NCBI GenBank assembly: GCA_046483985.1
Contig: JAWOCD010000099.1
Location: forward strand, 68,648 to 132,647
Direction: 5' to 3'
Length of the DNA: 64,000 bases
From: Promethearchaeia archaeon
GTDB lineage: Archaea > Asgardarchaeota > Lokiarchaeia > Sigyniarchaeales > SOKP01
Shown: positions 1,913 to 45,613 of the stretch, piece after piece
Layout of the letters: each line of letters begins with the position of its first letter
How positions within the stretch are numbered: position 1 is the stretch's first letter
The notes under the pieces: model-generated
What the model saw: only the letters and a program-made list of their open reading frames with translations
Told to the model about the DNA's origin: nothing
Databases searched by the model: none
Program-made: the position numbers and the translations under genes

Positions 1913-4900
1913 ATGAGTAATGAAGAAAACCGGGAATCCAAAAAACAAGAAAAAGAAAAGAAGGATCAAAGCCAAAAATCTACTGAGAATGATAAGGGGA
2001 CCTCGGCTGAGGCATACAATTATGTAGAGCATGCACTGTCATTGTTGGATTCTGGATATTATGATGATGCAATTGAAGCTTTGAAATCGGCTAAGGAGTT
2101 GTACTCACAGATCTCCAGAGAAGAAGAAATTTCCATGGTTAAACAGAAGATCTCCGATATTTACTTAATGAAGGAAGAAGCACTTGGTGAAGAACAAGCA
2201 GCAACAGAATCGGAGGGAGAAAAGGAGAAAAAAGATTTAAGTGAGGAAAAAGAATTTGAAGAAAAAAAAGAGAAAGAATCAAAAGAACAACAAAAAGTAG
2301 AATATTCCCGAAAAGATAAAGAAATAATACTCAATGAAGCCTATGAGTTTTTAGATAGAGGGGAAAAATTAGCTAACACAGAGTATTTTGAGGATGCAAT
2401 AAAAAATTTCAGGAAAGCAAAAAATTTATTTAAAAAAATTGGGAAAAGAACAGAAGAAACTAATGTAGAGGATAAAATCAATGCAATTTTAGCTGAAAAA
2501 GAGGAGAAGTTAGAAAAAAAAGAAGAGAAACAAAAGCTGGAAGAAGAGAAAAAGAAACACGCAGAGAAGCAATTAAAAGCTCGAATGAAAAAAGCAAAGC
2601 AACAAGAAGTGAAAAAAAAAGAAGAAAGATTTAAGAAAATCCAAGAATATGAAACAAAAAAGATTGAAGAAAAACGGTTTAGAAAGGAAATAGACCGATT
2701 AATTGATAAAGCCGAGAAATTAGCACGAGAATATGAAGTTCAAATTAGAAAAGGAAACTTCAAGCAAGAATGTATTTATCCACAAATCATTAACATTTAT
2801 ACGGAAGTTAGAAAAAAATTATTTAAAAGAGGATGGGATAAGGAAGCAAGCATGTATACCAACCAAATTAAAAAGTATAAGGATAAATTAGAAAAAGACA
2901 AAAAACTTAGAGAATTAGAGGAAGAAAAGAAGCAAAAAGATAAAAAATTTGAAGAATATTATAAATCTAGGGGAAAACCTTCTAAAAAAACTGAAGCAAA
3001 GGCGATTAAGGAGAAAAAACAGGATAAAAGACTCAGTGATAAGCGATTTGAGGAAAAAATTTCCAATATGGTTGATAAGGCCGAAAATCTGGCAGGTGCC
3101 TACGAACGGAATATTCGTAGAGGAAAATTTGAGGAACAATGTGTTTACCCGCAAGTAATTGATATTTACAAAGAAGTCAGAAAAAGATTGTTCGAACAAG
3201 GGTGGGATAAAGAGGCCCAAATATATACGAACCAAATTAAAATTTACAAGGAGAAATTAGAAAAGGACAAAAAGTTACGGAAATTAGAGGAAGAGAAAAA
3301 GAAGAAGGATAAAAAATATGAAAAATATTTTAAGAGTAAGAAAGGGAAAAAAGAAAAGAAAGCAGCTAAACAAAAAGGGACCAAAAAAACCTCCGAGAAT
3401 GAGCGTGGAGATAAAGCTTTTGATCTCATTAATAAAGCAGAAAATGCTGTAAAGAATTATGAACTAAAGCTGAAAAAAAATATTTTATTACATGACCCAC
3501 CATATGAAGAAGCCATAGAATTATACAGAAAAGCTCAAGATATTTTTAAGGAGATCGGGTGGAAAGAGGAGGCTACACGATTAAACGATACTATCAATCA
3601 TTATAAACAAAAACAAGCAAAAGACGAAAAACTGAGGGAGAAGGAACGTAAAGGATTAAAAAAAGAGCAAAAGAAAGAATTAGAGGAAGGGAAAAAAGAT
3701 AAAAAAGCCCAAAAAGAAAAGAGCGAGAAAGAAGAGATCCCTGAAAAGATTCTGAACAGCATAAATGAAGCAGAGAAAATTGCCAAAGAATACGAAAAAC
3801 AGATTAAAAGAAATAAGGCAATATTACAGATTGAATGCCCTTATGAAAAGGTCATTAGGATATACCGGACGGCAAAAAAACGTTTCAATAAGCTGGGCTG
3901 GGACGAAGAGGCTCAGAAGTTGATCCGCTCCATTAATTTCTATAAAAAAAAGTTACAAAAGGATAAAAAGCTCAGAGAATTCGAAAGACAGAAAAAACAA
4001 AAAGAGAAACGATTTGAAGAAAGGCTAAAGGCAATAAAAAAACCTGACGGTATCGCACAAGAACTGAAAAGGGAAAAATTAAAGGATGATAAAAAGGAAG
4101 GAAAAGTAAAAGCAGATGAGATTTTTGAGAAAATTAATAAATCTGAGCGAAAAGGAAAAAAATATGAGCGAGAAATAAAAGGAGGACAGATCCTTGACCA
4201 TAAATCCCCATATGAAGACATTATCCAGACTTATAGGAGGGCAAGAAAAGAATTAAAAGATATTGGATGGAACGAAGAGGCTCAGAAATTACTCAGTTCC
4301 ATCAACTACTATAAAAAAAAATTCCAACAAGATCAAAAACTGAGGGAATTTGAAAGGAAGAAGGAAAATCGGAAAAAAGAATTTGAGAAAATGGCGAGAA
4401 CTAAGCCTAAATCACCCAATTTAGAGAAGAGAAAGGAAAGATTGGCCAAAGAACAGAAAAAGACCAGAGAATCAGATATTCAAAGGGAAAAAGCGTTCAA
4501 ACTAATGGATAAAGGAAAATTAGAGTTCAAAAAGAACAATTTTGATAAAGCAATTAGACATTATAAAGAGAGTGAAGAGATTTTCGAAGAGATTGGATGG
4601 GAAAAAGGAAAAACAATGATTAACCAATCAATAGCTGTAATTAAACGAAAAAGGAAAGCACTGAGCCAAAAACAGCAAAAATTGAAAGAAAAAGAAAAGG
4701 AAAAAAAAGAGTTGGAAAAAAAATTAGAAGAACGAATAGCTGGACTAAGAGAAAAGAATGAAATAGAGAGGAAACAAAAAAGGGACAAATTTGTTCAAGA
4801 CCAAAAAGAAAAAAAGGAGGAAAGTGCACTCACAGAAAAAGCCTATGGCCTTCTGGAACAAGGTACAAAATTGGCTCAAAAGAAAAAGTTTGATGAGGCG

Positions 4901-5902
4901 CTTGAAAAATATAAGAATGCCCGGGAGATTTTCAGTAATTTAGGATGGAGCCACGAGATTAGTAGAATTAACAACGAACTTTTGTACAAATTGAAAAAAA
5001 AGGTGAGGGAAGCCAAAAAGCGGGAAGATTTCAAGAAAAAACAAGAGGAAAAAGAGAAAGCATTAAAAACCCTCTTAGATAAAGCAGAAAAAAAGCGAAA
5101 AAAGAAAAAAGAGCAAACTAAAAAAGAAAAAAGAGAAAGACTCCACCGATTATCTGGCGGTGAACGCAAGAAAGAAAAATTATTAAGAAAAAGTAACCAA
5201 GCAGAAGATCTCATTGAACAAGGACAGGTGAATGAAGCAATCTTACTACTTAAAAATATCCAAAAAATAAGCAAAAAGACGGAATTAATAGCTGAATTTC
5301 CAGATATAAGCAAAAAAGTCTCCAAATTAAAGGAAAATACAAATATCCCCATTATCACAGATTCAGCGGAAGAGGCAGATTTAAAAGATGATAACTTCCA
5401 ATCGGCTTATAGAGCGTTAGATAAGGCGAATCAGGCGATTGAAGAGGGTCACCTTATGAAAGCAGTTTCAGAACTAAATGAAGCAAAATTCAATTTACAG
5501 TCTCTTCCCGGCCAAGCGAATTCTTTATCATTAGTCGAGGAGAAAATCGAAGAATGGAAAGACCAATTAAGATCTGGGAAATCTCTTCAAAAGACTAAAA
5601 AAGAATCAGCTCAGAGCAATAAAAAAGATTTAGAGCCGACCAGCGATCTAGCCTACGAGTACATGGATAAAAGCAACAAGGAAAAGCGAAAGAATAACTA
5701 TAAGAAGGCAATCGAATTAGCCAACAAAGCACTGGAAGTTTTTGAGACTTTGGGAGCTGAATGGGCAAGAGAAAAGGCGATGGTCAATAAACACATCGTA
5801 CAATTAGAACAAAGTCAAGAAAAACGGCAAGAATTGTTCACATCTGCACGGAAAGAACAAGAAGAAAAAGCACGAGGACAAAAAAAGCAGAAAAAAGATT
5901 AA
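1913..5902 (+). CDS. Giant K/E-rich helical-repeat (TPR/MIT-like) coiled-coil protein
   Basis: About 11-12 recurring helical units (A[YF]xxxxxA...Y/FxxAxxxYxxAxxxFxxxGW) separated by charged linkers. Confidence 0.85.
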   Translation: MSNEENRESKKQEKEKKDQSQKSTENDKGTSAEAYNYVEHALSLLDSGYYDDAIEALKSAKELYSQISREEEISMVKQKISDIYLMKEEALGEEQAATESEGEKEKKDLSEEKEFEEKKEKESKEQQKVEYSRKDKEIILNEAYEFLDRGEKLANTEYFEDAIKNFRKAKNLFKKIGKRTEETNVEDKINAILAEKEEKLEKKEEKQKLEEEKKKHAEKQLKARMKKAKQQEVKKKEERFKKIQEYETKKIEEKRFRKEIDRLIDKAEKLAREYEVQIRKGNFKQECIYPQIINIYTEVRKKLFKRGWDKEASMYTNQIKKYKDKLEKDKKLRELEEEKKQKDKKFEEYYKSRGKPSKKTEAKAIKEKKQDKRLSDKRFEEKISNMVDKAENLAGAYERNIRRGKFEEQCVYPQVIDIYKEVRKRLFEQGWDKEAQIYTNQIKIYKEKLEKDKKLRKLEEEKKKKDKKYEKYFKSKKGKKEKKAAKQKGTKKTSENERGDKAFDLINKAENAVKNYELKLKKNILLHDPPYEEAIELYRKAQDIFKEIGWKEEATRLNDTINHYKQKQAKDEKLREKERKGLKKEQKKELEEGKKDKKAQKEKSEKEEIPEKILNSINEAEKIAKEYEKQIKRNKAILQIECPYEKVIRIYRTAKKRFNKLGWDEEAQKLIRSINFYKKKLQKDKKLREFERQKKQKEKRFEERLKAIKKPDGIAQELKREKLKDDKKEGKVKADEIFEKINKSERKGKKYEREIKGGQILDHKSPYEDIIQTYRRARKELKDIGWNEEAQKLLSSINYYKKKFQQDQKLREFERKKENRKKEFEKMARTKPKSPNLEKRKERLAKEQKKTRESDIQREKAFKLMDKGKLEFKKNNFDKAIRHYKESEEIFEEIGWEKGKTMINQSIAVIKRKRKALSQKQQKLKEKEKEKKELEKKLEERIAGLREKNEIERKQKRDKFVQDQKEKKEESALTEKAYGLLEQGTKLAQKKKFDEALEKYKNAREIFSNLGWSHEISRINNELLYKLKKKVREAKKREDFKKKQEEKEKALKTLLDKAEKKRKKKKEQTKKEKRERLHRLSGGERKKEKLLRKSNQAEDLIEQGQVNEAILLLKNIQKISKKTELIAEFPDISKKVSKLKENTNIPIITDSAEEADLKDDNFQSAYRALDKANQAIEEGHLMKAVSELNEAKFNLQSLPGQANSLSLVEEKIEEWKDQLRSGKSLQKTKKESAQSNKKDLEPTSDLAYEYMDKSNKEKRKNNYKKAIELANKALEVFETLGAEWAREKAMVNKHIVQLEQSQEKRQELFTSARKEQEEKARGQKKQKKD
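2678..4380 (+). repeat. Five tandem ~120-aa intragenic repeat units
   Basis: Recurring AE..A..YE..I.....[CP]xY..II..Y........GW..EA......I..YK.K...D.KLRE; units 1 and 2 are still similar at DNA level (e.g. AACCAAATTAAAA, AAATTAGAAAA). Confidence 0.85.
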
Positions 5903-17229: not shown

Positions 17230-19842
17230 TTAATTACTTATATGTCCTATTTTTTCAAACGTTAATTCAGTAGAATTTGATTCCACTCTAATCAAATCTT
17301 CCTCAGTAAATTTACCCTCCAACAATTTTAAAGATAACGGATCTTGTATGTATTTTTGAATTGCTCGTTTTAATGGTCTTGCGCCATAATCGGGATCAAA
17401 TCCTTTTTCCGCTAAAAATGCTTTTGCTCCTTCGGAAAGTTCCACCTTGATGTGTTTATCAGCAAGAATTTTATTCAATTCTCGTATTTGAATGTCTACG
17501 ATATCCTTGATTTGCTCCTTTTCTAAGAAGTTGTAGATAATTATATCATCCACTCGATTCAAAAATTCTGGTTTAAAATGATGTCGTAGGGTCTTCATAA
17601 TTCGTTCCTTGTCAATTTCTTTATTTTCATCTCTTGCCTCTAAGATGTATTGACTTCCTATATTGCTAGTCATAATTAAAATAGTGTTCTTAAAATCCAC
17701 TGTTCGTCCATGGCCATCTGTCAATCGTCCATCATCCATAATTTGTAATAAGATGTTAAACACTTCCGGATGTGCTTTTTCAATTTCATCAAGTAAGATA
17801 ACTGAGTAAGGTCTTCGCCTCACCGCCTCAGTCAAATATCCTCCTTGCTCATAACCGACATAACCAGGTGGCGATCCGATCAATCTTGCAACGCTATGTT
17901 TCTCCATAAATTCCGACATGTCTAATCTTACCATTGCCTCTTCATCATCAAACAGAAATTCTGCTAGTGCTTTTGCGGTTTCCGTTTTTCCCACTCCCGT
18001 GGGTCCCATAAAAATAAAGGTTCCTATAGGTCTATTCGGGTCTTGTATTCCCGTCCGCCCTCTTCTAATTGCATTTGAAATGATATTTAATGCTTTATCT
18101 TGACCAATTACTCTTCTTTTTAGTCTTTCTTCCATATGAAGGAGTTTCTCTCGCTCTCCCTCCATCATTCTCGATATGGGAATTCCAGTCCATTGTGAAA
18201 CGATTTGTGCAATATCTTCCTCATCTACTTCTTGTTTCAACATCGGATGATCATTTTGTAATTCTTCTAATTCTTCTTGGTTTTGTTTCAACTCTTTCTT
18301 CAGTTCGTTCATTTTTCCATAAGTGAGTTCTGCAGCCTTATCTAGCTCTCCCCGTTTTTCCGCTTTCTCGGCCTCAATCTTGGTTTTTTCCATTTCTTCC
18401 TTTATTCTTCGAATATTTTTGATCTTTTCCTTCTCATTTTTCCATTGAAGCTTCATTTTGCTAATTTCTTCTCGCAAGTTATGCAATTCTTCATCGATGT
18501 TTTCTAATTTTTCCTTCACCGCCTCATCGTGTTCTGCTTCTTTCTTTAATGCTTCCCGCTGAATCTCTAATTGAATAATTTCTCGCTCAATTTCATCTAT
18601 TTCTGTTGGCATACTATCAATTTCAATTCTCAACCGCGATGCGGCCTCATCCATTAAGTCAATCGCTTTATCGGGCAAAAATCTGTCCGATATATAACGA
18701 TTTGAAAGAGTTACTGCGGCAATAATCGCGGAATCTGTAATACGAACTCCGTGATGGACTTCATATTTTTCTTTGATTCCTCGGAGAATCGCCACTGAAT
18801 CTTCAACAGAAGGTTCTGCAGTAAATACAGTCTGAAACCGCCGAGTAAGAGCTGCATCCTTTTCAATATGCTCTCGATATTCATCTAATGTAGTAGCGCC
18901 AATACACTTCAATTCTCCTCGAGCTAATGCTGGTTTCAACATATTTGATGCATCAATTGCTCCTTCTGCAGCTCCAGCACCCACTAAGGTATGAAGTTCA
19001 TCAATGAAGAGTATATATTTCCCCGCACCTTTTTTAATTTCTTTTAATAAGGCTTTCAGTCGGTCTTCAAATTCACCGCGATATTTTGCTCCCGCAATTA
19101 AGGATCCCAAATCAAGAGTCAATAATTCCTTATCTTTTAGAGATTCTGGTACATCATCATCTGCAATTCTCTGGGCTAATCCTTCTACAATCGCAGTTTT
19201 TCCCACTCCTGCTTCTCCGATCAGGACGGGGTTATTTTTTGTCCGTCGGGATAATATATGCATTAACCGCCTGATCTCATCATCTCGTCCAATAATGGGA
19301 TCGAGCTTGCCACGACGGGCTAAGTCGGTCATATTGATACAATATTTTTGAATTGTCCGATATCTGCCCTCTGCATTCTTATCTGTTACAGTCTGTGTTC
19401 CTCTCACACTTTTTAATGCTTTGAGCAGTCTATCCTTCGAAATGCCGTATTTTTTTAATAATTCATGTAAACGTAATGAATCTTCTTCTGCCATTGCAAT
19501 TATAAGATGCTCAGAGCTCAGAAATTCATCATTTAATGACTCTGCCTCTTCCCACGCTTTGTCGAAAACTTGCTTACTGTTACGGGAGATCCTCACATCG
19601 GTAGCGCCAGGACCCGTCACTTGCGGTAATCTGTCTAACTCTCGATGTAAGTCTGAAAGCAACCGTTCTACTTGGATTCCCAGTTTTTGAAATAAGGGAC
19701 GGGCAATCCCATCTTCTTGCTCTAATAGTGCTAATAAAAGATGAACTGGTTCGATTGATTGATGATCGTTTGTTTGGGCAATTGAACGGGCTGATACAAT
19801 CGCTTCTTGCACTTTGATAGTAAATTTATCATATTTCATCAT
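17230..19842 (-). CDS. clpB: ATP-dependent disaggregase ClpB
   Basis: Clp N-domain, [15 protein letters not shown], coiled-coil M domain, [18 protein letters not shown]. Confidence 0.98.
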
Positions 19843-19860
19843 TTTTTTAATCTCCCCTCA

Positions 19861-20925
19861 TTATAATCCGGTTTGTTTTAATTTTTCTAATAGGCGTTTT
19901 TGCTTTGAATTGACCTTTTGCGGAACTTTAATTTTGATCTTTACCAATTCATTGCCGCGTTGCTCGGTGCCCACCTTGTAAAAACCTTGATCTTTCAAGC
20001 GTAGAACTGTGGAATCCTTAGTTCCAGGAGGGACAGAAACAGTTAAATCTTTCTCTATCCCTGGGACACGGATTTTCCCCCCTAATGCTGCGGTCGTAAA
20101 GGGTATTTCCTTTTCCACGCGGATATCATCTCCGTCGCGTTCAAAGGTCGGGTGGTCACGGATATGTACGGCAATATAAAGGTCCCCGGCTTTTCCGCCA
20201 TGTTCCCCAGGCATTCCTTTTCCTTTTAATCGTAATTTTTGGCCATCTTTAATTCCTTTGGGAATTTTGACTTTTAATTGTTCTTGTTCACCTGACATGG
20301 GATTTCGGTATGAAATCCTTCGCTCTCCGCCATAGAAGGCATCCATAAATCCGATCTCCATATCGTATCTGAGGTCATCACCTTCGCGAGGGTTTTTTCT
20401 CCGACGCCCTCCCGTTGATCGGGCCCTTGTACTTCCTCTTCCTCCTTTTGAGAAGACATCGAATATATCGCCTAAGTCATTAAAGAAATCGAAACCTCCA
20501 AATCCAGAAGACCCACTTCTTCCTCCTCTACTTTTTCCTTTCGAACCACCAAATATATCGCTGAAATCAACCCCACCCTTACCAGATCCGCCAGTAGAGG
20601 TATAATATACGGTACCATCCGGTCCTCGATAAACTCTTCCACCACCAGGTGCCCCTCCGGGGCCTGCCCCTCCAGGGCCTGCCCCTCCAAAATTAGGCGC
20701 TTCTCCTCCCGTGACTCCAAATTTATCATACATTTTTCTTTTCTTCTCATCGCTTAATACCCGATACGCTTCATTAATCTTCTTAAACCGTTCACCAGAG
20801 CGTGGCTCATCGGGATTTACATCAGGATGGTATTTTCTTGCCTTCTTTCGAAAAGCTCGTTTTATGTCATCTTGCGTGGCGTTCTCATCAACGCCTAATA
20901 TTTTGTAATAATCTTTTTTCGGCAT
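19861..20925 (-). CDS. dnaJ: DnaJ co-chaperone, class B (no Zn finger)
   Basis: J domain with HPD, long G/F region, C-terminal domain; no CxxCxGxG repeats. Confidence 0.92.
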
Positions 20926-21133
20926 TATTCTCTCCTTCCTTTTTTATATTCTTCTATACTTATATACTTCCTTTTTTTCTTAGTTAAATGTAAACGGTAA
21001 AATGGAAAATTAATTCCTATGAAATGATACATAATTCCTAAATGGTACATAAATGTTCATATATGATAATGAAATAAAAAATAAAAAAAAATTTGGTTGT
21101 CCTATATTTTTAGGAATTCTAACTTCTATTTGC

Positions 21134-23080
21134 CTATTCTTCGTAATCAGCGTCTATGACTTCATCTTGTCCCGTGGCACGACGGAAATGCTCTTCTTCC
21201 ATCTCATCTTGCGTTTTGGCGCGTTTTCCTTGTGCCCCACTGGTACCTTGTCGTCCTGCAGCTGCATCGCCCCTTCCCCCAGGTCTTGCTGCACCATATG
21301 CTCCTTGTGGTCCAGCTTGTGGTCCAGCTTGTGGTCCTTGTTGACCATACATTTTGCTAGACACTTTATGAAGGGCGTTTTGTAACTCATCCATCGCATT
21401 TTGAATCCTTGTAGTATCATCAGTTTCAAGCGCATCTTTGACTTCCTTGATTTTCCCTTCAATTTCGCTCTTAATGTCTCCAACTATATCTTCGTTTTCT
21501 CTCAGAATCTTCTCGGCTTGATACATGATCGATTCAGCTGAGTTTTTCAATTTTGTCAGTTCTTTGAACTTCTTGTCTTTTTCCGCATGACGCTCTGCTT
21601 CACGGATCTTTTCTTCGATCTCTTCATCAGACATCTTCGTGGACGCGGTAATTGTAATCGACTGCTCATTGCCAGTTGCTTTATCTCGTGCTGAAACATT
21701 CAATATCCCATCGGCGTCAATATCAAAGGTAACTTCAATTTGCGGAACTCCGCGCGGTGCAGGTGGAATTCCAGTCAAGTGGAACTTCCCTAAACTGATA
21801 TTGTCCTTTGCTTTCGGCCGTTCTCCTTGTAGTACATGAATCTCTACTGCAGTTTGATTATCAGCTGCAGTTGAAAAAGTCTCCTTTGCGCTTGTCGGAA
21901 TTGTCGTATTACGATCGATTAGTTTGGTAAACACTCCGCCTAAGGTTTCGACACCTAAGGACAATGGCGTAACGTCCAACAGAAGCAAGTCGTCAACTTC
22001 ACCAGTTAAGACACCTCCTTGGATTGCTGCTCCTCGAGCAACACACTCCATTGGATCAATGCCACGTTCCGGTTTCGTGCCTAGGAATCGCTCAAATTTC
22101 TCCTTGACCGAAGGCATTCTCGTTGGTCCACCGACCAAGATTACCTTGTCCACGTCTCCTTTCGACATCTCGGCGTCGTCAAGGGCCTTTTTAATCGGGT
22201 GATCTAACCGTTTTAACACGGGCTGAATTAATTGTTCTAATTTTGCTCTTGTAATGGTCATTTCCAAGTGTACAGGGTCACCGTCTTTCTGACTTATATA
22301 TGGTAAGTTAATGTCTGTACTAAGGGTATTCGATAATTCAATCTTTGCCTTTTCCGCGGCCTCCGTCAATCGTTGCATCGCTTTTTTGTCATCAGTTAAA
22401 TCTACTCCTTCTTTCTTTTTGAATTCGTCAACAATGTAATTTACCAGTTTTTCGTCCATATCCCGTCCACCGAGTTGGGTGTCTCCAGCGGTCGAAATAA
22501 CTTCAAAGACTCGCTCTTCCATTTCCATGATGGTAACATCAAATGTTCCTCCACCCAAGTCAAGAACTGCGATGGTCATTTTTTCATCTTCCTTATCCAG
22601 ACCATAAGCAACTGCGGCGGCTGTCGGTTCGTTAATGAGTCGGCGTACGTTCAATCCAGCAATTTTACCAGCATCCTTTGTTGCTTGGCGCTGATTATCA
22701 TTAAAATATGCGGGTACTGTAATGATGGCATCCGTCACTTCTTCGCCCAAGTAATCGCTGGCGTCTCGTTTAATTTTCCTGAGAATCATCGCTGAGATTT
22801 CTTGCGGAGTATATTCTTTCCCTTCAATTTCTACCTTGTATGAAGTACCCATCTTTCTTTTAATTCCCGTGATTGTACGCTCTGGGTTCGAAATTGCTTG
22901 GCGTCGTGCAGGTTCTCCGACTAATCTCTTTCCATCCTCTGTAAATGCAACAACAGATGGAAATGCTTTTCCGTAGAGGGTTACACCTTCTGCACTCGGA
23001 ATAATCTCTGTGCTTCCACCACTTAATACAGCGGCGGCCGAGTTAGAAGTTCCTAAGTCAATACCTATTATTTTTCCCAT
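21134..23080 (-). CDS. dnaK: Hsp70 chaperone DnaK
   Basis: [36 protein letters not shown]. Confidence 0.99.
21305..21337 (-). repeat. 12-bp tandem repeat encoding [11 protein letters not shown] in the DnaK tail
   Basis: TTGTGGTCC(AGC) x3 on the plus strand. Confidence 0.8.
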
Positions 23081-23199
23081 AGATTTTTCACTTCCTTTTG
23101 TTATATTTTTTCTTTTTATTCTAATTTTTATTTGATTTTTTTAGATTATTTTGTTAATCTTGATTGTTTATTTGAGTTTGCTTCAAATCTGCTCGAGAT

Positions 23200-23880
23200 T
23201 TAATTCTCTTCCCGAGGTTTTTTTGAAATTATTACCCTTGCGGGCCTCAATACATTTCGTGGATCATTCACATAATAACCATTTTCTACTACTTCCAGTA
23301 TCTCGTTATTTGGGAGATCTTTGTTTTCTTGAACCATCACCGCTTCATGCTTATAGGGATCGAATTTCTCTCCGTTGCACTGTATCTTTTTGACCCCTTG
23401 ATCTTCCAGCAGCCTTTCGTAGTTTTTCATAACCATCTGAAATCCGCGTTTTACTTGTTCATTTTCGGTCTGTTGAATGGCTTCCCACCCACTCTGTAAG
23501 GTGTCGTAATGGTTTAGTAGTTTTTTCAGGAGCGTGTTTTTATAGCTTTCCCGGTCCCTCGCTTTCTCCTTGTCCACTCTTTTCCGATAGTTATCGAGGT
23601 CCGCGCGCGTGCGGCATAATGCTTCATAATATTTCTTGGAATCTTGCTCCAATTTTTTGACTTTCTCCTCGTTTCCTTTTAGTTGTTTAATTTTATCTTC
23701 CAGTTTCTCTGCTTCCTTTACGAGCTTTTTATATTCTTGCTCAAGGGAATCACATTTCTCGGCTTTCTCCAGCAGTTCTTTCAGTTTCTTCTTCGTGATT
23801 TCCACTTTTTGCGTTGTTTTTTGGTTTCTTGATCTTGTTCGGTTATTCATAAAATCATCCACATGGTTTCCAAATACCAT
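23200..23880 (-). CDS. grpE: Nucleotide exchange factor GrpE
   Basis: ADLDNYRKR, FDPYKHEAV, GYY...LRPARV; adjacent to dnaK. Confidence 0.95.
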   Translation of the reverse strand: MVFGNHVDDFMNNRTRSRNQKTTQKVEITKKKLKELLEKAEKCDSLEQEYKKLVKEAEKLEDKIKQLKGNEEKVKKLEQDSKKYYEALCRTRADLDNYRKRVDKEKARDRESYKNTLLKKLLNHYDTLQSGWEAIQQTENEQVKRGFQMVMKNYERLLEDQGVKKIQCNGEKFDPYKHEAVMVQENKDLPNNEILEVVENGYYVNDPRNVLRPARVIISKKPREEN

Positions 23881-24305
23881 TTTTTAATATCTCCCACTTT
23901 CTTATGTGTTTTTTTGGGTTTTTTCGCTCAAGTCAATCTGAGTTTGTAAACCTCTTATTTACATATACTTTATTATAAAATTATAAATTGACATATTTAA
24001 ATGTTTGGTTTTTGGTTTATAAGTGAGCAGTACTAAAAAACTATAATCGGGAAGAGAAAAGATGAAAAAGTTTATAAGCATAAGATGCTCTAAGAAAAAC
24101 TACATAAAACATTCCATAACCGAGAGCATATCGATGATGCACGTTGTGGAAAAGTTTTCTGATTCTTTTAAGCTCTCCTTTTTGATGATCTTTGCAGATG
24201 GGATCTCGTTTGGTCTTGGTTATATGACGAGGCTATTTAATCTACCTCTCTCTCAGTAAATTCCAGAACGAAAAAAGAAAACCTTTTTTTTCCTCGCTTT
24301 TTATC

Positions 24306-35847: not shown

Positions 35848-36370
35848 TTGAACTACCACGCCCTAAAGGGCGGTGGATTCGTGCTCCCTAATGTGCTATA
35901 TACACCTTAGACAACACAGGATGGTTCTCCACCCCGATATGATCGTCATTCGGTTTTACCTTAGCATTACACACAGGACAGATCGATGAGGTATGGCGCT
36001 CATATATTACGATTAACTCAATTCCGTATTCTTCGCACTTGTTCTGTATTTTCTTTTTGAATATATCGAAACTCCAGAAGTTCTGAATCATTTGGTTGAT
36101 CTTCTCCTTATTTTTGATTTGTTTTGGAATTTTACAGTCCCTTATTCCTTTGAGGTCGCCTATGATGACCTTTAAAACCTTATACTGCTTCAGTTTACGG
36201 AATAGATGAGCGATAATGTTGTTCATATAGTTTTCCAGCTTTCTCCTTCTTTTTAGGAAAAGTCTCCTTATACGCTTGGTAGAGTATCTGTTATTGTCTT
36301 GCTTGGCTATTGATTGGTATCTGGCTATTTTCTTAGTTATTTTGGTGTATTCATCAAATATATGTTCTGA
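35848..36370 (-). mobile_element. tnpB: IS200/IS605 remnant: truncated tnpB plus intact right end
   Basis: IIGDLKGIR (RuvC-II), WSF...IQNKCEEYGI, ERHTSSICPVC. Frame is open to 36370; RuvC-I and RuvC-III are missing. Right end GAATCCACCGCCCTTTAGGGCGTGGTAGTTCAA. Confidence 0.9.
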
Positions 36371-38058: not shown

Positions 38059-39399
38059 ATGCATAGTTTATATAAAATTCATAGAAAAATCAAATTTAAA
38101 AGAAAAAATATGAGTGAAGAAAAATCGAATTTGGGCGAACTCAAGTGTTTTACTAAAATCCCTTCATCCGAAATAACAATCCAAGAAGAGGATATTTTTT
38201 ATCGCCCCAAATATAATGAAGTAATCAATTATTTCAAATATCTTCTCACTATCGAAAAAAATGAATTAGAATATGGTCCGAATGGTCTTTTATTAATCAC
38301 TAGTCCGTACGGTACTGATATTGTAGACTATCTTAAATTAATCTCTCAAAATTATTATTTAGATTTCTTTCAACTCAATTTCAATACTATTCAGAAGGAA
38401 AACAAGAAATTTCCTCAAAAATTAGGAGATTCTCTTAAAAAATTGAACAAAAAAGAGAAGATTCAAGAGGAAACTCAAGAAAATAAGGAGGAAAAAAAAG
38501 AAGAAAATAAAAAAGAGAAAAAAACCGAAGAGGGTAAAGAAGAAAAGAAGAGGATTAAACTATTAGTCATTGATGAAAAAGTCTTATCTGAGAAGACCAA
38601 AGGAAAAAGATCTTTTTTGGAGAAATTTTTCATTTATCTTGCTAATCAACCAAAAGGTTCAGATTTATTAAAAAGAAAAGTTATTATGGTGTGGGTAAAT
38701 TATGATAAACGCTCAATTTTAAGAACTGGCAGCGAATTGTTTCAGTTTTTTGATTTGTATTTGAAAATTCCCAAATTAACTGAATCTGAGCGAGAAGTTA
38801 TTCTTAATACTTATATCGATCAAAATGAAATGATGAAGATAAATATTGAACAAGTGCTCCCCTATATGCATGGATGGGAAGTAAAGGACATTAACAACAT
38901 TCTAAAAGTGGCAAAGTTAAAATATCAAATTAATTCCGATTTAACCGATGAGACCGGTGATATTACCTCTATTATTATCGATTTAATCAAATCAGGAGAA
39001 TTTTTCCCTATTTCTATGAGCACTGAAAGTAAAGTAAGGTATACGGAAAAAAAGGAAGGTAATCATTCCAATCAAGCAATATCAGATAATAGAGGGAAAA
39101 AATCACATAAAAAAGAAGGAAAAGAGGAGAGAATCAAGACCTATATATCAAGTATGAAGGAGCAAAAACATTCCGAATTTATGCTGAACCAATTATATGA
39201 AGATGCGGCTTCTAAGAATTATGACGAGTTACTATTAATTATCGAAAAAATGAAGGATAATGAACCTCTGGGTGAAAATTCAAGAAAAATTTTAGGAAAA
39301 TTTCCTTTTATCTTAAATGATCCGCCAAAACAAGCTTTGGTAACTTTAGAGAAAGCAAAAAAGAGAATCGACCATATACGAGGAATTTATAAGGAATAA
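38059..39399 (+). CDS. Degenerate AAA+ ATPase-like protein
   Basis: PNGLLLITSPYGTD (Walker A lacking GKT), LLVIDE (Walker B), FDLYLKIPKLTESEREVIL lid; likely start MSEEK at 38110. Confidence 0.65.
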   Translation: MHSLYKIHRKIKFKRKNMSEEKSNLGELKCFTKIPSSEITIQEEDIFYRPKYNEVINYFKYLLTIEKNELEYGPNGLLLITSPYGTDIVDYLKLISQNYYLDFFQLNFNTIQKENKKFPQKLGDSLKKLNKKEKIQEETQENKEEKKEENKKEKKTEEGKEEKKRIKLLVIDEKVLSEKTKGKRSFLEKFFIYLANQPKGSDLLKRKVIMVWVNYDKRSILRTGSELFQFFDLYLKIPKLTESEREVILNTYIDQNEMMKINIEQVLPYMHGWEVKDINNILKVAKLKYQINSDLTDETGDITSIIIDLIKSGEFFPISMSTESKVRYTEKKEGNHSNQAISDNRGKKSHKKEGKEERIKTYISSMKEQKHSEFMLNQLYEDAASKNYDELLLIIEKMKDNEPLGENSRKILGKFPFILNDPPKQALVTLEKAKKRIDHIRGIYKE

Positions 39400-39416
39400 A
39401 GGAGGAGACTATTAAG

Positions 39417-42400
39417 TTGGTAAGCAAAGCAGAGCAAGTGGAAGGGGATCATTATTATATCGAACGAGTTAAATTAGAGAATTTCCTCTCTTTTCAAAAG
39501 GATGAAGTCTATTTCGGTGGTAAGGAAAATAAATTTATTATAGTTATTGGTCCGAATTGGTCTGGAAAGACCTCTATTTTTCAAGCTATAAAATTCGCAT
39601 TAGGAAGTAACGAACGGGGAAAACGATATCCAAAATGGTCTGATTTTATTCGGCATAATCAAGACTATGCTAAAGTTGAATTGCAAATTAAAGACGAGAA
39701 TGAAAAAAATATTAAGATCAAAAGGACTGTTATCAGAGGAAGGTCACCATTTTTTGAGGTTCAACGAGAAAATGAAAAAGAGTTTACTAAGGTTCGTGCA
39801 AAGGAGGTACGAGATATCGTCAAGCAGATGGATTTTAATCCGGATAATCAATTTGCAATAGTGAGCCAAGGGAGAATAGATGAAATTAAAAATTTAAAGC
39901 CAGAAACGTTGTGTTCATTCTTAGAAGAGGGTGTAGGACTTAAAAGCTTAAGGACGGAAATCTTGGACCAAAAAGAGGGTGTGATGAATTTAAAAAAGAA
40001 ATTAAGCTCATTGCTTACCGAACAGAGCACATTGAAGGTTCGATTAAAGATGTTACAACCCAAATTAGAAAAATTGGAGAAGAAAAAAGAATTACTCAAA
40101 GAAAAGCAGAAATATGAAGATGAGCTCTTGTTCGCAAACCGAAAGAAAGTAGAAAACGAGATTAAAGAATTAAAAAAAAGACAAACTCAATTGAGTGATA
40201 AAATCGAAAAACTGCTCCAAAAAAAGAAAAAAAATGATAAAGAGATTAAAAAATATCAACACAAATTAGACAAGATAGAACAAGAAACAAATGGTTTATC
40301 GAAAGAATTAGGGATTCAAGAAGAAAAAAAAACCACTCTGGAAAAACAAATCAATCAATGGCAAAATGAAAAGAAATCAATGAAAAAAGAATTAGAACAT
40401 CTCGTTGATGAAATCTCGAAGAAGGAAAAAACCGTGGATAATTACTTGGAACAAAAAAAAAGCCTTGAAAAAGAAAGGAAAATCATTCAAAATGAAAAGA
40501 AGAGAATTGAAGAGCAATTCGATAAATTAATTGAAGAACAATCCGATTTGAATGAAAAAATTAAGCAAAATCAAAAACTCTTGAAAAAATATAAATCCTT
40601 AGATTCCAAGCGTGATAAAAAACGAAAAAAGATTGATAAAAATGAAGAAAAAATCGAAAAAATCAATAAGAGGATAGAGCAGAAGTTCGAGTTCTTAAAG
40701 GACGTTAATCACAAATTGAAGCAGAACAATTGGTTTATGGAAGATCCTACCGCGAATCTCTTAAAAAAATTGCAAAAGAAATATAATGAAATCATCTCTC
40801 AACAGAATAAATTGGAGAAGAAAAAGAAAAATTTAAATTCAAGAAAGTTCAGAAAGCTCCGGCGGTTGAAACATCTTCAAAAGTCCGTTAGGGAGAGAAA
40901 GATCGCCCTTCCCTCAAATATAGTCGTATTAAAAGAAGAAATCGAGAAAAGAGAATTAAATGTGAAAGGCCCCATCATTGATTATCTAAAATACGATGAC
41001 AAGCTCAGTTATGCCATTGAATCGGTGCTTGGGAAAAAATTATTATTCAGTTTTATTGCACAAGACTGGGACACGAAAACAATTCTGAATAGGATTAAAA
41101 ACAAATATAATGCCTATTGTAATTTATATGTGCCAAAGAAAAGGAGAATAAAAACTTTTCAAAAGATCTCCGGCAAGGGAGTTATAGGATATTTGGCGGA
41201 ACTTATTCAGGTGAAAGGAAATGATAAGGCCGTCAAAAAAGTACTTTACTCCAAGATTAAGAATTGTTTAGTCGTGGAGGATTATCACTCTGGCAAAGAG
41301 ATGCACAATTCCCATAATTTTAGAGGAAAATGCGTTACTCTAGATGGAAAACAAATCATTTCCTATCGATATGCTTACGAAACACCCTTTAAGAAAAAGT
41401 TAGATGGACTTTTAAGTGCGGGAACACAGAGAGAACAAGTCTCCGACCTTGAAACGGAGATTGAAGAATTGAATGACGCACTTTCTGAGCTAAAAGTGAA
41501 ACAGTCGAAATTGGACAACAAGCAACGAGAAACGAAAAATAAAATGGATTCATTCAAAAATTTGGAGTATTACTTTGAAAGAAAACAGAGACTTACCAGA
41601 GAGAAAAATGAATTATATGAACAACGAAATTCTTTGGAAAGGTCAAATGAGTCTATTGAAGAGGAAATCCAATCAATCAGCCAACAGATTAAGTCGTTAG
41701 AAAAAAAGACAGATCCTGATTTTTTTAAATGGAATAACCGTATCAAAGAAATTCCAGGAGAATTAAATGAGGTTAATCAAAAAAAGAAAAAATGGAATAA
41801 AAAACTCGATGAAAACTCGAAAATTTATAAAAACGTTAAATCAACCTATAATTCCCATCAGAGCGAGTTAAAAGAGAGTAAAAAGGAAAAAAAGCGAAAA
41901 GAAAAGGAATTCCACAAGGCAGATAGAGAGGCGTTCGAGTTATACAGACAATTAGATAAGATCGGGGAAAAATTATTAGAGATTAAAGAGAAAATCTCAG
42001 AAAAGCAAGAAGAGCGTGAAAAAATCCAGAAGAAAAGGGAAGAGTTTGATCAAAAAAGCATGGAATTGAAACTCCAACTGGATAAAGATAATATGAAGTT
42101 AAAGTCAATTAAACAAGAACAAAAGTCAAAAGAAAACGATTTAAAGCGAATTAATAAGAAATTAAAACCTCTTATCGCGAAAAATGAAGTTGCTCAGCGA
42201 CCAGTTGAAGAGATTAAACGAGACATAAAAGAGCTGAATAATGATTTACTGGAATATACCGACGTCAGCGATGATCTTTTAGTTCAAAAGGATAATATTC
42301 TTGCATCTCTAAAAGAAATTACCAAAAATAAAAAAAATGTCGAACAAGATATTAATGCAGCGTTAAAAACAGAAAAAAAGTTAGAACATAAGTATTACGA

Positions 42401-42917
42401 ACGGTTCGAAAAAATATTAGAAAAATTGGAAGGAAAAATTAATGAAAAATTCCAGTCATCTGATATAAAATCATATTGCTCGCTTACACTGAAGGGAGAT
42501 TTTAAGCATCTCGGGATTGATATTAAAGCTGCCACCTCAAAGGAATTGGTAAAATCGTGTACCGCCTTAAGCGGAGGACAAGTATCAATGGTTTCAATCT
42601 GTTTAATCCTTTCATTGCAGGAAATTAAACCTTCTCCGCTATGTATGTTTGATGAGGCTGCAATGTTTTTAGACGATAAAAACTCCGAAGCTGTATACCA
42701 ATTAATTAAATCAACCTTGGACGAGCATCAAAACGTACAAATGATATTATTCCTACCGAAATCTTCAAATTCCTTATTTTTATTGGCTGATAAAATTATC
42801 GGGATTGCCCGGGCCGGCAAAGAGGAAGTATCTCATGTATTTGAACCCGTAATTATTCATGAGAAGGATGAGCAGAAAGAAAATAAAAAGATCAAAATTA
42901 AAGACGATAAAAAATAG
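39417..42917 (+). CDS. SMC-family ATPase, Smc5/6-like
   Basis: GPNWSGKT, Q-loop VSQG, long coiled coils, central hinge, LSGGQ signature, PLCMFDEAAMFLD. Confidence 0.92.
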   Translation: MVSKAEQVEGDHYYIERVKLENFLSFQKDEVYFGGKENKFIIVIGPNWSGKTSIFQAIKFALGSNERGKRYPKWSDFIRHNQDYAKVELQIKDENEKNIKIKRTVIRGRSPFFEVQRENEKEFTKVRAKEVRDIVKQMDFNPDNQFAIVSQGRIDEIKNLKPETLCSFLEEGVGLKSLRTEILDQKEGVMNLKKKLSSLLTEQSTLKVRLKMLQPKLEKLEKKKELLKEKQKYEDELLFANRKKVENEIKELKKRQTQLSDKIEKLLQKKKKNDKEIKKYQHKLDKIEQETNGLSKELGIQEEKKTTLEKQINQWQNEKKSMKKELEHLVDEISKKEKTVDNYLEQKKSLEKERKIIQNEKKRIEEQFDKLIEEQSDLNEKIKQNQKLLKKYKSLDSKRDKKRKKIDKNEEKIEKINKRIEQKFEFLKDVNHKLKQNNWFMEDPTANLLKKLQKKYNEIISQQNKLEKKKKNLNSRKFRKLRRLKHLQKSVRERKIALPSNIVVLKEEIEKRELNVKGPIIDYLKYDDKLSYAIESVLGKKLLFSFIAQDWDTKTILNRIKNKYNAYCNLYVPKKRRIKTFQKISGKGVIGYLAELIQVKGNDKAVKKVLYSKIKNCLVVEDYHSGKEMHNSHNFRGKCVTLDGKQIISYRYAYETPFKKKLDGLLSAGTQREQVSDLETEIEELNDALSELKVKQSKLDNKQRETKNKMDSFKNLEYYFERKQRLTREKNELYEQRNSLERSNESIEEEIQSISQQIKSLEKKTDPDFFKWNNRIKEIPGELNEVNQKKKKWNKKLDENSKIYKNVKSTYNSHQSELKESKKEKKRKEKEFHKADREAFELYRQLDKIGEKLLEIKEKISEKQEEREKIQKKREEFDQKSMELKLQLDKDNMKLKSIKQEQKSKENDLKRINKKLKPLIAKNEVAQRPVEEIKRDIKELNNDLLEYTDVSDDLLVQKDNILASLKEITKNKKNVEQDINAALKTEKKLEHKYYERFEKILEKLEGKINEKFQSSDIKSYCSLTLKGDFKHLGIDIKAATSKELVKSCTALSGGQVSMVSICLILSLQEIKPSPLCMFDEAAMFLDDKNSEAVYQLIKSTLDEHQNVQMILFLPKSSNSLFLLADKIIGIARAGKEEVSHVFEPVIIHEKDEQKENKKIKIKDDKK

Positions 42918-42946
42918 AAAAATTATTACGATTTTAGGAGGATTAT

Positions 42947-43594
42947 ATGGACATCATTAATAAGTCACAGAGTATCATTCACCAAATTGATGAGATTAAG
43001 CAAAATTTCATTGAGGGAAATATTACATTATTAGATTTAGAATTAGTCCCCTTTTTTGAGGAGATAGAGCAAGCAATAAAACCTACTAACTTAGATAATT
43101 ATTCCGAATCATATAAAAAAGCTTGTGAGTTATTAAATGAAAAATTTAAGGAATTAAAGGAATTGGTAAGCTCTTTTGAGTCTGAAAAAAGGTTTATCGA
43201 TTTCTTGCACCACGAACCTACCGATGAAGAGATTTCTCGCTTATTTAAGGGTTGTTGGATAAAAATATTCAAAGTAAACCAACTCTCTGCTCAATTTTTA
43301 AAGGAGAGTAAGGAGAAATTATGCTCCAGGAAAAAAAGCAAACAAAAAGTATTTGAGACTCAAGATGTCGAGGTATCCGATGAATTTCGATTGGAAATCC
43401 CCAGAAAGAAATTTACTGAAAAAATGATGAGTTTTTTCAACATTGTTAAAGATCAATTACCATGCTCCTACAAGGAAATATTCAAGCACGAAGAGGATCA
43501 AATAGAGATCTATGAAAAATTCATTTATTTATTACATCTACTCCAAATGGGTAAAATTAAATATCAAAAAGAAACGAATTATTTGTACAAATAA
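42947..43594 (+). CDS. Kleisin (ScpA/Nse4-like) subunit
   Basis: Directly after SMC; C-terminal winged-helix motif IYEKFIYLLHLLQMGKIKY. Confidence 0.7.
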   Translation: MDIINKSQSIIHQIDEIKQNFIEGNITLLDLELVPFFEEIEQAIKPTNLDNYSESYKKACELLNEKFKELKELVSSFESEKRFIDFLHHEPTDEEISRLFKGCWIKIFKVNQLSAQFLKESKEKLCSRKKSKQKVFETQDVEVSDEFRLEIPRKKFTEKMMSFFNIVKDQLPCSYKEIFKHEEDQIEIYEKFIYLLHLLQMGKIKYQKETNYLYK

Positions 43595-43598
43595 AAAG

Positions 43599-44159
43599 GT
43601 GAGTAAAATAAATCAATTATCTATTCTTATGCATCTTTTAAGTAAGGAATATAAGGATTCAAATAAGATCGGAGTTACCAAAAAAGAAGCTCTTGAATAC
43701 CTTAACGTCCCATCCCGAAATAGTGATCTGTTTTTTCAAGAATTACTCACTCATTTAGCAAAATATATACAACCAATAGGACTACAAATTCGATTCAATC
43801 CGATTAATGAGCATTGGTATCTTAGCTATGATGATAATATCTCTGATCTAATCCAAGCTAATCCGTTTTCGGACAAACCACGGTTACCAGCAACTTTATT
43901 TTGTATTCTCACTGTGGCAATGAGACATACTGGGGAAATTAGGGCAAAAAATGTAAAAGAGTTACGGAAAAAAAAGGGGATCCATCGGGACCTACGAGAT
44001 TTAGAAGATTTAGGGTATATAAGCCTAGAAAAGGACAATAACGGAATGGAACTCATTAAATTAACCCCACTGATTGGATATCAACTGGATTTAGAAAAAT
44101 TATCACTTAATTTAGCGTTACATACAAAGAAAAAAAAAGAAGAAGGAACACAGAATTAG
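43599..44159 (+). CDS. Kite (ScpB/Nse1/Nse3-like) tandem winged-helix subunit
   Basis: LAKYIQPIGLQIRF...WYL then ATLFCIL...LRDLEDLGYI; GTG start 4 nt after the kleisin stop. Confidence 0.65.
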   Translation: MSKINQLSILMHLLSKEYKDSNKIGVTKKEALEYLNVPSRNSDLFFQELLTHLAKYIQPIGLQIRFNPINEHWYLSYDDNISDLIQANPFSDKPRLPATLFCILTVAMRHTGEIRAKNVKELRKKKGIHRDLRDLEDLGYISLEKDNNGMELIKLTPLIGYQLDLEKLSLNLALHTKKKKEEGTQN

Positions 44160-44804
44160 TTACTTTCCATGCGGTTTTGTCGTGATATCCAAGATCATTT
44201 CCGCCACGTGATTATTATAAGTCTCAACTTCCTCAAAGTCTTTTATTTCCTCTCCACATGTGATAAATAATCCCTTCACTTTGATATTTCTCTCATCAAA
44301 GAAATTATGAATTTTTTCTTTTACTTCCTTCAATTTCTCATCGATGTTTCCTTCCACCAAATCGATTTTGTTCACGCACACATAGATTGAATTGGGAAAG
44401 AACCTTACATCATTAAAGAAATTAAACTGTGTTTCTAAATCACGATCCATTGAAAATACGGCTACAACTTGGGTGGCAATTCTACTAATGGTGATTATGC
44501 CCATTTTCACTACTGCTCTTTCTCTATCTCCGCCTGGAGCAAATATTGTATGTGCTTTTCCTCCTTCATTTTCACGGAAGACTACTCGATTGGGATGAAT
44601 AGTTTTCGTCGGTTTTTGATTCAGATCATTATCTTTTTTACCATCGGGCAATGTTGCTTCTCCGCTAAAGTCGGTTTTTACAACTGCACACTTCATCCCG
44701 CCTTCCACATTTTCAATCTCTCCTTGATTTAAATACTTTACAAATAGTCTAAGGATAGAGGTCTTACCTACTGAAACATCGCCTAATAATCCGACGTTTA
44801 CCAT
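44160..44804 (-). CDS. Small Ras-superfamily/MglA-like GTPase
   Basis: G1 GDVSVGKT, G2 TKTI, atypical G3 FAPGG, G4 NKID. Confidence 0.85.
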   Translation of the reverse strand: MVNVGLLGDVSVGKTSILRLFVKYLNQGEIENVEGGMKCAVVKTDFSGEATLPDGKKDNDLNQKPTKTIHPNRVVFRENEGGKAHTIFAPGGDRERAVVKMGIITISRIATQVVAVFSMDRDLETQFNFFNDVRFFPNSIYVCVNKIDLVEGNIDEKLKEVKEKIHNFFDERNIKVKGLFITCGEEIKDFEEVETYNNHVAEMILDITTKPHGK

Positions 44805-45613
44805 TAGATGTCACTCTCCAAGAGTTTATTTAAAAGTAATTCATAATCTTCGACCAGGAATTGTTCCAAAAATGCATTATTATATGAATGAATCAGCGCA
44901 ATCAACACTTCCTTTAAATTTCTTGCATTTTTTGCGTATTTTAGCAAATTTTTTGGTGTTGGATCGTCATTGAAATCTCTGGGATCTTCTTCAAATCCAA
45001 ACTGCTTACGGGATGGTAAAGAATTAAAAAATCCAAAAGCAGAATAACTTTGATATTGGAAAAACACAAAAAATCGAGATTTAATCGATTTTATTACCCT
45101 GCTCAAGAAAACAGAAGGATATAACTCCCCTAACGTAAGGAGATTATCTTGTCGGATAACAAAATACGGTGAGATTGGAGAGTCGTGATCTCCGTACATT
45201 TCTTTCGGTGGTAAAGAGATAAACGGTAATTTTTCTTCTACGATTGACCATAAATCTTCCCGATTTTTCTCCAAAAGAATTTTTTTAATCTCATCGTAGG
45301 CATGATAAAAATCAGACTGTAATGAAAGTAAGGAACTTAAATATACAGATAAAGATGCAAAAGTTGCCTCTAATAACGGACGACGACTTGAATCGCTTGA
45401 CGGTTTCGCCGCACCTCTCCAAGCACGTAACGCAGAATAACTAAATCCCTTTACATCAAAGAACCCACCAGAGAGGAATATAAACGAGGGGGCTTCTTTT
45501 TTTTCACTGGACAAAAACTCATCCGCTTTTTCAATCAACACGTCTTCCAAATCGTCCTCATTGAATTTGGAATGGACCTTAGGCATTTTTAAAAATTTAT
45601 ATTTTTTCGGCAA
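44804..45613 (-). CDS. Hypothetical protein translationally coupled to the GTPase
   Basis: TAATG stop/start overlap with the GTPase. Confidence 0.75.
   Translation of the reverse strand: MPKKYKFLKMPKVHSKFNEDDLEDVLIEKADEFLSSEKKEAPSFIFLSGGFFDVKGFSYSALRAWRGAAKPSSDSSRRPLLEATFASLSVYLSSLLSLQSDFYHAYDEIKKILLEKNREDLWSIVEEKLPFISLPPKEMYGDHDSPISPYFVIRQDNLLTLGELYPSVFLSRVIKSIKSRFFVFFQYQSYSAFGFFNSLPSRKQFGFEEDPRDFNDDPTPKNLLKYAKNARNLKEVLIALIHSYNNAFLEQFLVEDYELLLNKLLESDI

Follow-up and report, generated by a model that had tools for sequence, protein, structure and literature searches.

The question raised by this locus is whether an archaeal operon of SMC, kleisin, and kite genes encodes a relative of the eukaryotic Smc5/6 complex, and what the additional gene at its head does there. 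The locus lies in the window analyzed here, a stretch of 64,000 nucleotides from contig JAWOCD010000099.1 of a Promethearchaeia archaeon whose genome comprises 4.06 Mb and is 97% complete. Four genes follow one another on the + strand, separated by 17, 29, and 4 nt; they encode, in order, a AAA+ module that is predicted to be catalytically dead, an SMC protein, a kleisin, and a kite (Table 1). We read this operon as encoding, in its Lokiarchaeial version, the second archaeal SMC complex, the "SMC5/6-related" one, with the AAA protein as an accessory, and we assign this reading a probability of about 0.8; it draws on the gene content, motifs, folds, orthology, and conservation observed for the operon. 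The SMC5/6-related set of SMC, kleisin, and kite is already in print, and this part of our analysis only confirms published work. The dead AAA gene in front of the SMC gene is an undescribed element in the papers that we searched.

A first-pass annotation, made from the letters of the DNA, had described a complete Smc5/6-like SMC-kleisin-kite operon of four tightly spaced, co-directional genes. The coordinates of the open reading frames (ORFs) confirmed this arrangement and its gaps, and the peptides quoted in its support (GPIIDYL, YAIESVLG, LFSFIAQD, DGKQIISYRYAY, and ICLILSLQEIKPSPLCMFDEAAMFLD) were all located in the sequence. The completeness of the operon was borne out by the Pfam matches of the SMC, the C-terminal winged helix of the kleisin, and the tandem winged helices of the kite. 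The arrangement is far beyond chance. About 80 Lokiarchaeial species share the four genes and their order, and the set recurs in the other families of the class, in Thorarchaeota, and in further Asgard families at 20-30% identity. The kite is present in 143 of the 161 genomes of the class (37 of the 40 high-quality ones), and the operon occupies a fixed syntenic place beside housekeeping genes.

The archaeal SMCs termed SMC5/6-related were defined by Yoshinaga and Inagaki 2021 (PMC8665677). Whole operons of this type, composed of the SMC, an Nse4-related kleisin, and an Nse1/3-related kite, were found to be carried by TACK and Asgard archaea (van Hooff et al., bioRxiv 10.1101/2024.01.07.573240), and the example given from Promethearchaeum syntrophicum, NZ_CP042905.1_495-497, corresponds to DSAG12_00497-00499 (bioRxiv 10.1101/2024.01.07.573240). 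Among our genomes is that of P. syntrophicum MK-D1, in which DSAG12_00496 and DSAG12_00498 flank the window-type SMC gene; this operon is located on the + strand, ~320 kb (roughly 313 genes) from a minus-strand operon with a 1483-aa SMC. The orientation and distance match those of 495-497 (+) versus 810-808 (-) in the published table, and the window is therefore to be regarded as an ortholog of the published example; judged from sequence and gene position, the whole operon corresponds to DSAG12_00496-00499. As in the published operons, the gene family and order are the same and the set coexists with canonical-type SMC operons; the published description comprises three genes, to which the window set adds the dead AAA gene (DSAG12_00496 in P. 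syntrophicum).

At least three SMC operons coexist in one Lokiarchaeial genome. A separate canonical smc gene was found elsewhere in the genome of the window; its product scored 851 bits on the prokaryotic Smc model, and a ScpB gene follows it. The third operon, on contig C50, encodes a 1483-aa SMC, followed by a 333-aa gene and then by a 293-aa ScpB-like kite. This SMC has head motifs of the canonical kind and is without a hinge match in Pfam; by position its operon equals the P. syntrophicum "condensin/cohesin-related" genes 808-810. A head-domain tree was built from 43 Asgard SMCs only. Among these proteins, the window-type SMC did not branch within canonical Asgard Smc; it formed a clade of its own, which a long branch divides from the canonical and 1483-aa types (SH-aLRT 100; 94 for the group as one split), and the 1483-aa type was sister to canonical Smc.

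The SMC protein of the window matched the Pfam families SMC_hinge, AAA_23, and SMC_N, with the hinge match at residues 515-629 reaching 30.5 bits (E 5e-7; cut-off 22.5), and the profile of its family aligned over the full length to Smc2/3/4 chains. The head motifs were found to be a Walker A of GPNWSGKT, a Q-loop glutamine at Q151, the signature LSGGQ, a Walker B of CMFDE, and a D-loop of MFLD. In particular, the Walker A G/GK, the Q-loop Q, the signature SGG, the Walker B DE, and the D-loop LD were invariant in 32 orthologs. The position of the H-loop histidine is taken by a proline (FLPKSS); the heads keep all motifs of ATP binding and hydrolysis except this histidine. P. furiosus Smc (PDB chains 1xew_Y and 4i99_A) reads QFIVITLRD at this place and likewise lacks the histidine; its loss is therefore not diagnostic for Smc5/6-like heads. 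Smc5/6 may share with the window-type clade TP(K/Q) at the H-loop and F/Y-(M/L)-D at the D-loop; a literature search found no paper that describes the absence of the H-loop histidine from Smc5/6. The hinge reads VTLDGKQIISYRYAYETP and has no G..GG end motif, in contrast to VTLGGDTVNSSNLMTGG in the canonical SMC of the same genome, which upheld the earlier observation that the canonical glycine motif is missing.

The two small proteins were recognized mainly by their folds and by family profiles. In the predicted kleisin model (pLDDT 78), a linker of low confidence joins an N-terminal three-helix bundle to a C-terminal winged helix (residues 155-215). Superposition of this winged helix on that of P. 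furiosus ScpA (4i99_C) with VIA gave a Z-score of 7.7 and a root mean square deviation (rmsd) of 2.2 over 60 of 70 residues, and the Asgard-wide kleisin profile matched the C-terminal winged-helix chains of ScpA (4i99_C, E 0.009; 5xns_C, E 0.029). The top weak rows of the Foldseek search were Brn1, Nse4, and ScpA; the match to Nse4 (7qcd_F) was weak and non-rigid (Foldseek E 0.29; VIA Z 7.4, rmsd 20.8). The N-terminal domain returned only generic helical-bundle matches in Foldseek and VIA. The protein was homologous across Asgard (hhalign 99.8%, E 5e-29), and one JGI homolog carries the name kleisin. These results give marginal but concordant support to the C-terminal winged helix as that of a kleisin.

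The predicted kite model (pLDDT 79) showed two tandem winged-helix domains (residues 1-86 and 88-166) and a C-terminal helix. Foldseek matched it to ScpB (1.5e-4), equally well to MAGE-A3/A4 (2.2e-4), to Nse1-Nse3-Nse4 (4e-3), and weakly to JetB, and each winged-helix domain aligned to ScpB at a VIA Z-score of 9.8. The Pfam family SMC_ScpB was matched by 6 of the 28 members of the kite family (best 2e-15), and the kite was also homologous across Asgard (hhalign 100%). Single-sequence Pfam and NCBIfam searches gave no match for genes 1, 3, and 4, and kleisin and kite profiles built from Lokiarchaeial sequences only returned nothing relevant from the PDB sequences. What had been called kleisin-like was supported, marginally, by the ScpA-type C-terminal winged helix, and what had been called kite-like by the tandem winged-helix fold; ScpA and ScpB are at least as close to the two proteins as are Nse4, seen as a weak row, and Nse1/3.

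To place the SMC head, C-head profiles of the window-type SMC and of canonical Asgard Smc were compared on PDB targets. The window-type profile scored lower than the canonical one on P. furiosus Smc (102 against 219 bits), Smc4 (80 against 131), Smc1 (about 66 against 123), Smc3 (85 against 104), and Smc2 (74 against 85), and higher on Smc6 (64 against 38 for 9lwi_A and 54 against 34 for 7ylm_B), Smc5 (about 51 against 38-47), and Rad50 (46 against 33). In the window type, similarity to Smc1-4 is reduced and that to Smc6 somewhat raised. The earlier statement that the head is closer to Smc5 and Smc6 than to Smc1-4 or prokaryotic Smc found no support in this form, as the C-head profile ranked P. 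furiosus Smc, Smc3, and Smc4 higher. The full-length family profile gave 337 bits for Smc3, 319 for Smc2, 314 for Smc4, 256 for Smc1, 203 for Smc5, and 196 for Smc6. The raw scores do not favor Smc5/6; it is therefore chiefly the published trees that support a specific link to this pair.

Several points weigh against a special affinity to Smc5/6. The absolute similarity of the SMC is highest to archaeal Smc and Smc1-4, the kleisin matches, with E about 0.01 and Z 7.7, are marginal and point to ScpA rather than to Nse4, and the Pfam matches of the kite were ScpB and DUF4194, with MAGE and Nse1 absent among the 25 families listed. The gain towards Smc6 may in part reflect the breadth of the profile, because the Rad50 score rises too. 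In the published SMC tree, a common origin of all eukaryotic SMCs is not rejected (p-AU 0.317; bioRxiv 10.1101/2024.01.07.573240). Taken together, these observations would fit an old, fast-evolving archaeal SMC paralog with ScpA/ScpB-type partners, which joins Smc5/6 through a long-branch effect and is no proto-Smc5/6. We consider this explanation unlikely, as two independent published phylogenies group the window-type clade with Smc5/6 (PMC8665677; bioRxiv 10.1101/2024.01.07.573240), the published kleisin tree rejects the monophyly of eukaryotic kleisins (p 0.002), and the profile scores move towards Smc6 in relative terms. Of the proto-Smc5/6 identity proposed by the first-pass annotation, the orthology to the published SMC5/6-related clade and the separation from canonical Smc stood, and absolute closeness to Smc5/6 did not; the idea itself had been published before.

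Comparison with the known complexes revealed shared and distinct features on both sides. The window set resembles eukaryotic Smc5/6 in its SMC-kleisin-kite architecture, in a hinge without the canonical glycine motif, and in a relative profile affinity to Smc6 above that of canonical Asgard Smc; unlike Smc5/6, it has one SMC gene and one kite gene, no RING in the kite, and no Nse2 or Nse5/6. Like Smc-ScpA-ScpB, it combines a presumably homodimeric SMC with a tandem winged-helix kite and a short kleisin whose C-terminal domain is a winged helix, and this complex gave the best sequence and fold matches of the kleisin and kite. In contrast to Smc-ScpA-ScpB, the window SMC scored far below the cut-offs of TIGR02168 (229 bits; cut-off 567) and TIGR02169 (205 bits; cut-off 729), belongs to a separate clade, and shows the variants SGGQ, MFLD, and FLPK; its kleisin gave no match to Pfam ScpA, and the operon has the extra dead AAA gene.

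This extra gene, the second part of our question, had been counted in the operon by the first-pass annotation and left uninterpreted. Its product is composed of a AAA+ module, a K/E-rich insert, a lid, and a C-terminal helical domain (residues about 368-446). The family profile matched both D1 and D2 of Cdc48/p97 (E 2e-49), and the Thorarchaeial orthologs matched the Pfam family AAA (PF00004, 7e-11). The Walker A position reads SPYGTD; the pattern GxxxxGK[ST] was found in none of 72 orthologs and GTD[IFLV] in 59 of them. In the Walker B column, we found N, E, D, P, A, or S followed by Q or other residues, and the DE of the window is unconserved. The arginine fingers were not conserved either, and the R-x-G-R segment was replaced. 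By these positions, the protein is predicted to be a catalytically dead AAA+; having no GKT, no conserved Walker B glutamate, and no arginine fingers, it cannot be an unfoldase motor. The protein keeps the α/β core and the lid of classical-clade AAA+ proteins such as Cdc48/p97/VAT; unlike these, it has a single AAA module, no N-domain, GTD in place of GKT, and a unique C-terminal domain.

The C-terminal domain (~77 residues) is the best-conserved part of the protein, with 52% mean column identity across Asgard. It was found in only 108 protein clusters of 1.84 billion representative proteins, and every named member among the 10 checked was from Promethearchaeota. The three distant carriers examined all sit directly before an SMC gene; in the two loci that are complete, the genes of a kleisin and a kite come next. 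Outside the GTDB family of the window, a gene with this domain was located directly upstream of the SMC in 23 of 25 loci; in the other two (L110 and L111, from two genomes of the same class), a AAA gene with an intact Walker A stands before the SMC, either as a live counterpart of the dead AAA or as its replacement. The spacing between the dead AAA and SMC genes ranged from -11 to +24 nt, and the linkage to the SMC start was kept even where the kite had moved away. The ORF was intact in 72/72 full-length orthologs. A homolog search with the Thorarchaeial protein returned Thorarchaeota alone and was uninformative on TACK. In the van Hooff preprint, the words "AAA" and "upstream" are absent (bioRxiv 10.1101/2024.01.07.573240), and a full-text literature search found no description of the dead AAA gene.

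The AAA gene could also be a co-transcribed neighbor with an unrelated job, or a decaying gene, and no partner of the SMC ring. Any contact between the AAA protein and the ring is inferred; complex prediction of the dead AAA (residues 36-446) with the SMC N-head, the SMC C-head, and the kleisin gave a score of 0.00, which speaks neither for nor against binding. In addition, the gene is shrunk to the lid and the C-terminal domain in one lineage (loci L093 and L094), and L110 and L111 have at this position another AAA, whose Walker A is intact. We nevertheless regard this explanation as improbable, since the reading frame is intact throughout the full-length orthologs, the C-terminal domain is conserved across Asgard, the linkage to the SMC start survives relocation of the kite, and no other context of the C-terminal domain appeared among the cases checked. 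As an accessory of the SMC5/6-related complex, the dead AAA, presumably co-transcribed with the other three genes, would most likely be a non-catalytic subunit, namely an adaptor, a loader, or a regulator of the ATPase that touches the ring via its lid and C-terminal domain. A more specific and tentative proposal is that it is a stoichiometric fourth subunit of the Asgard ring, a pseudo-enzyme loader or ATPase brake that docks via its C-terminal domain and does an Nse5/6-like job, with the live AAA of L110 and L111 representing an ancestral, ATP-using state.

Two further AAA-related or VWA-related genes were observed close by. In the Thorarchaeial loci L096-L100, a MoxR-like AAA_5 gene is divergently oriented upstream of the dead AAA, and in L093 and L094 a 557-aa gene with a weak VWA match precedes the shortened one.

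The wide, syntenic, and core-like spread of the operon argues, as do the missing nuclease and a PADLOC scan that gave nothing specific, for a housekeeping role in the chromosome or in repair rather than in defense. The restriction of extrachromosomal DNA raised by the first-pass annotation, which would make the operon a Wadjet/Mks-like system against plasmids or viruses, is very improbable: Smc5/6 and Wadjet both restrict such DNA, JetB is among the weak fold matches of the kite, and Wadjet JetABCD and MksBEFG likewise add a fourth protein to an SMC-kleisin-kite core, but the fourth protein here is a dead AAA and no Toprim nuclease, no nuclease or JetD-like gene lies in the operon or its flanks, the PADLOC scan gave generic SMC/ABC cross-matches and weak coiled-coil matches to JetC together with one chance-level DndD match for genes 1, 3, and 4, and the constant locus throughout the class is unlike patchy defense islands.

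As an SMC5/6-related complex, the products of the operon would be assembled as follows. The SMC would form a homodimer, as implied by the single SMC gene, and the short kleisin would bridge the two heads, with its C-terminal winged helix on the cap and its N-terminal helices on the neck. The kleisin would carry a dimer of the tandem winged-helix kites. By analogy with Smc-ScpAB and Smc5/6, the ring would entrap DNA or translocate on it in an ATP cycle, serving the chromosome or its repair as a housekeeping factor beside canonical Smc.

The start sites and coordinates are collected in Table 1. Gene 1 probably begins at ATG 38110, as the N-termini of its orthologs align to residue 18 of the long ORF, and TTTATATAAAA, which precedes this codon, may possibly be the archaeal promoter of the SMC operon. 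The longest ORF of gene 4 starts at 43512 and overlaps the kleisin gene; the start at 43599 agrees with a 186-aa entry in the protein database that is identical to the query.

Table 1. Positions of the operon genes, their counterparts in other loci, and neighboring features (window coordinates unless a locus is named).
Feature	Position	Strand	Details
Gene 1, predicted catalytically dead Cdc48/p97-type AAA+ module	38059-39399	+	446-aa ORF
Gene 2, SMC	39417-42917	+	1166 aa; TTG start; AGGAGG ahead
Gene 3, kleisin	42947-43594	+	215 aa; ATG start; AGGAGG ahead
Gene 4, kite	43599-44159	+	186 aa; GTG start
TTTATATAAAA, TATA-box-like element	38067-38077	+	~30 nt before ATG 38110; read from sequence
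AAA gene before the SMC, locus L110	4034-5656	-	540-559 aa (L110 and L111); GKT Walker A; long coiled-coil N-terminus; without the family C-terminal domain
AAA gene before the SMC, locus L111	6936-8615	-	as in L110
Operon of the 1483-aa SMC, locus L009	5813-10264	-	
Operon of the 1483-aa SMC, locus L009, further part	3874-5794		
Small GTPase with atypical G3 and overlapping 269-aa orphan gene	44160-45613	-	converging on the kite stop codon
4-alpha-glucanotransferase gene (GH77), locus L107	1816-3399		directly upstream of the operon
112-aa ORF matching the Cas12f1-like/TnpB TNB domain	35888-36226	-	E 1.7e-8

Additional observations concern the neighborhood. The GTPase is the best-conserved neighbor: its identity across the Lokiarchaeial loci is 64-76%, and in most of them it lies just past the kite. 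The 4-alpha-glucanotransferase gene directly precedes the operon in L108, L109, and L135 as well (the GH77 assignment was confirmed in L107 and L135), and ORFs of the same size stand at its place in P. syntrophicum and L. ossiferum. The short ORF upstream of the operon is probably, by its TNB domain match, a remnant of a TnpB transposon gene. Farther away, the G+C content rose to 0.39-0.43 at window positions 18000-24000 (elsewhere about 0.33), and the GC and AT skews were both negative; a comparison with Rfam gave no match there.

No closer relatives of eukaryotes are known than the Asgard archaea, and among the eukaryotic SMC complexes Smc5/6 is understood least. If our reading is true, a conserved pseudo-AAA dedicated to this SMC would represent a new type of accessory factor for SMC complexes, and it could show how SMC rings gained loaders and regulators before eukaryotes. 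Such a partner would be directly testable with the genes of the cultured P. syntrophicum and Lokiarchaeum ossiferum.

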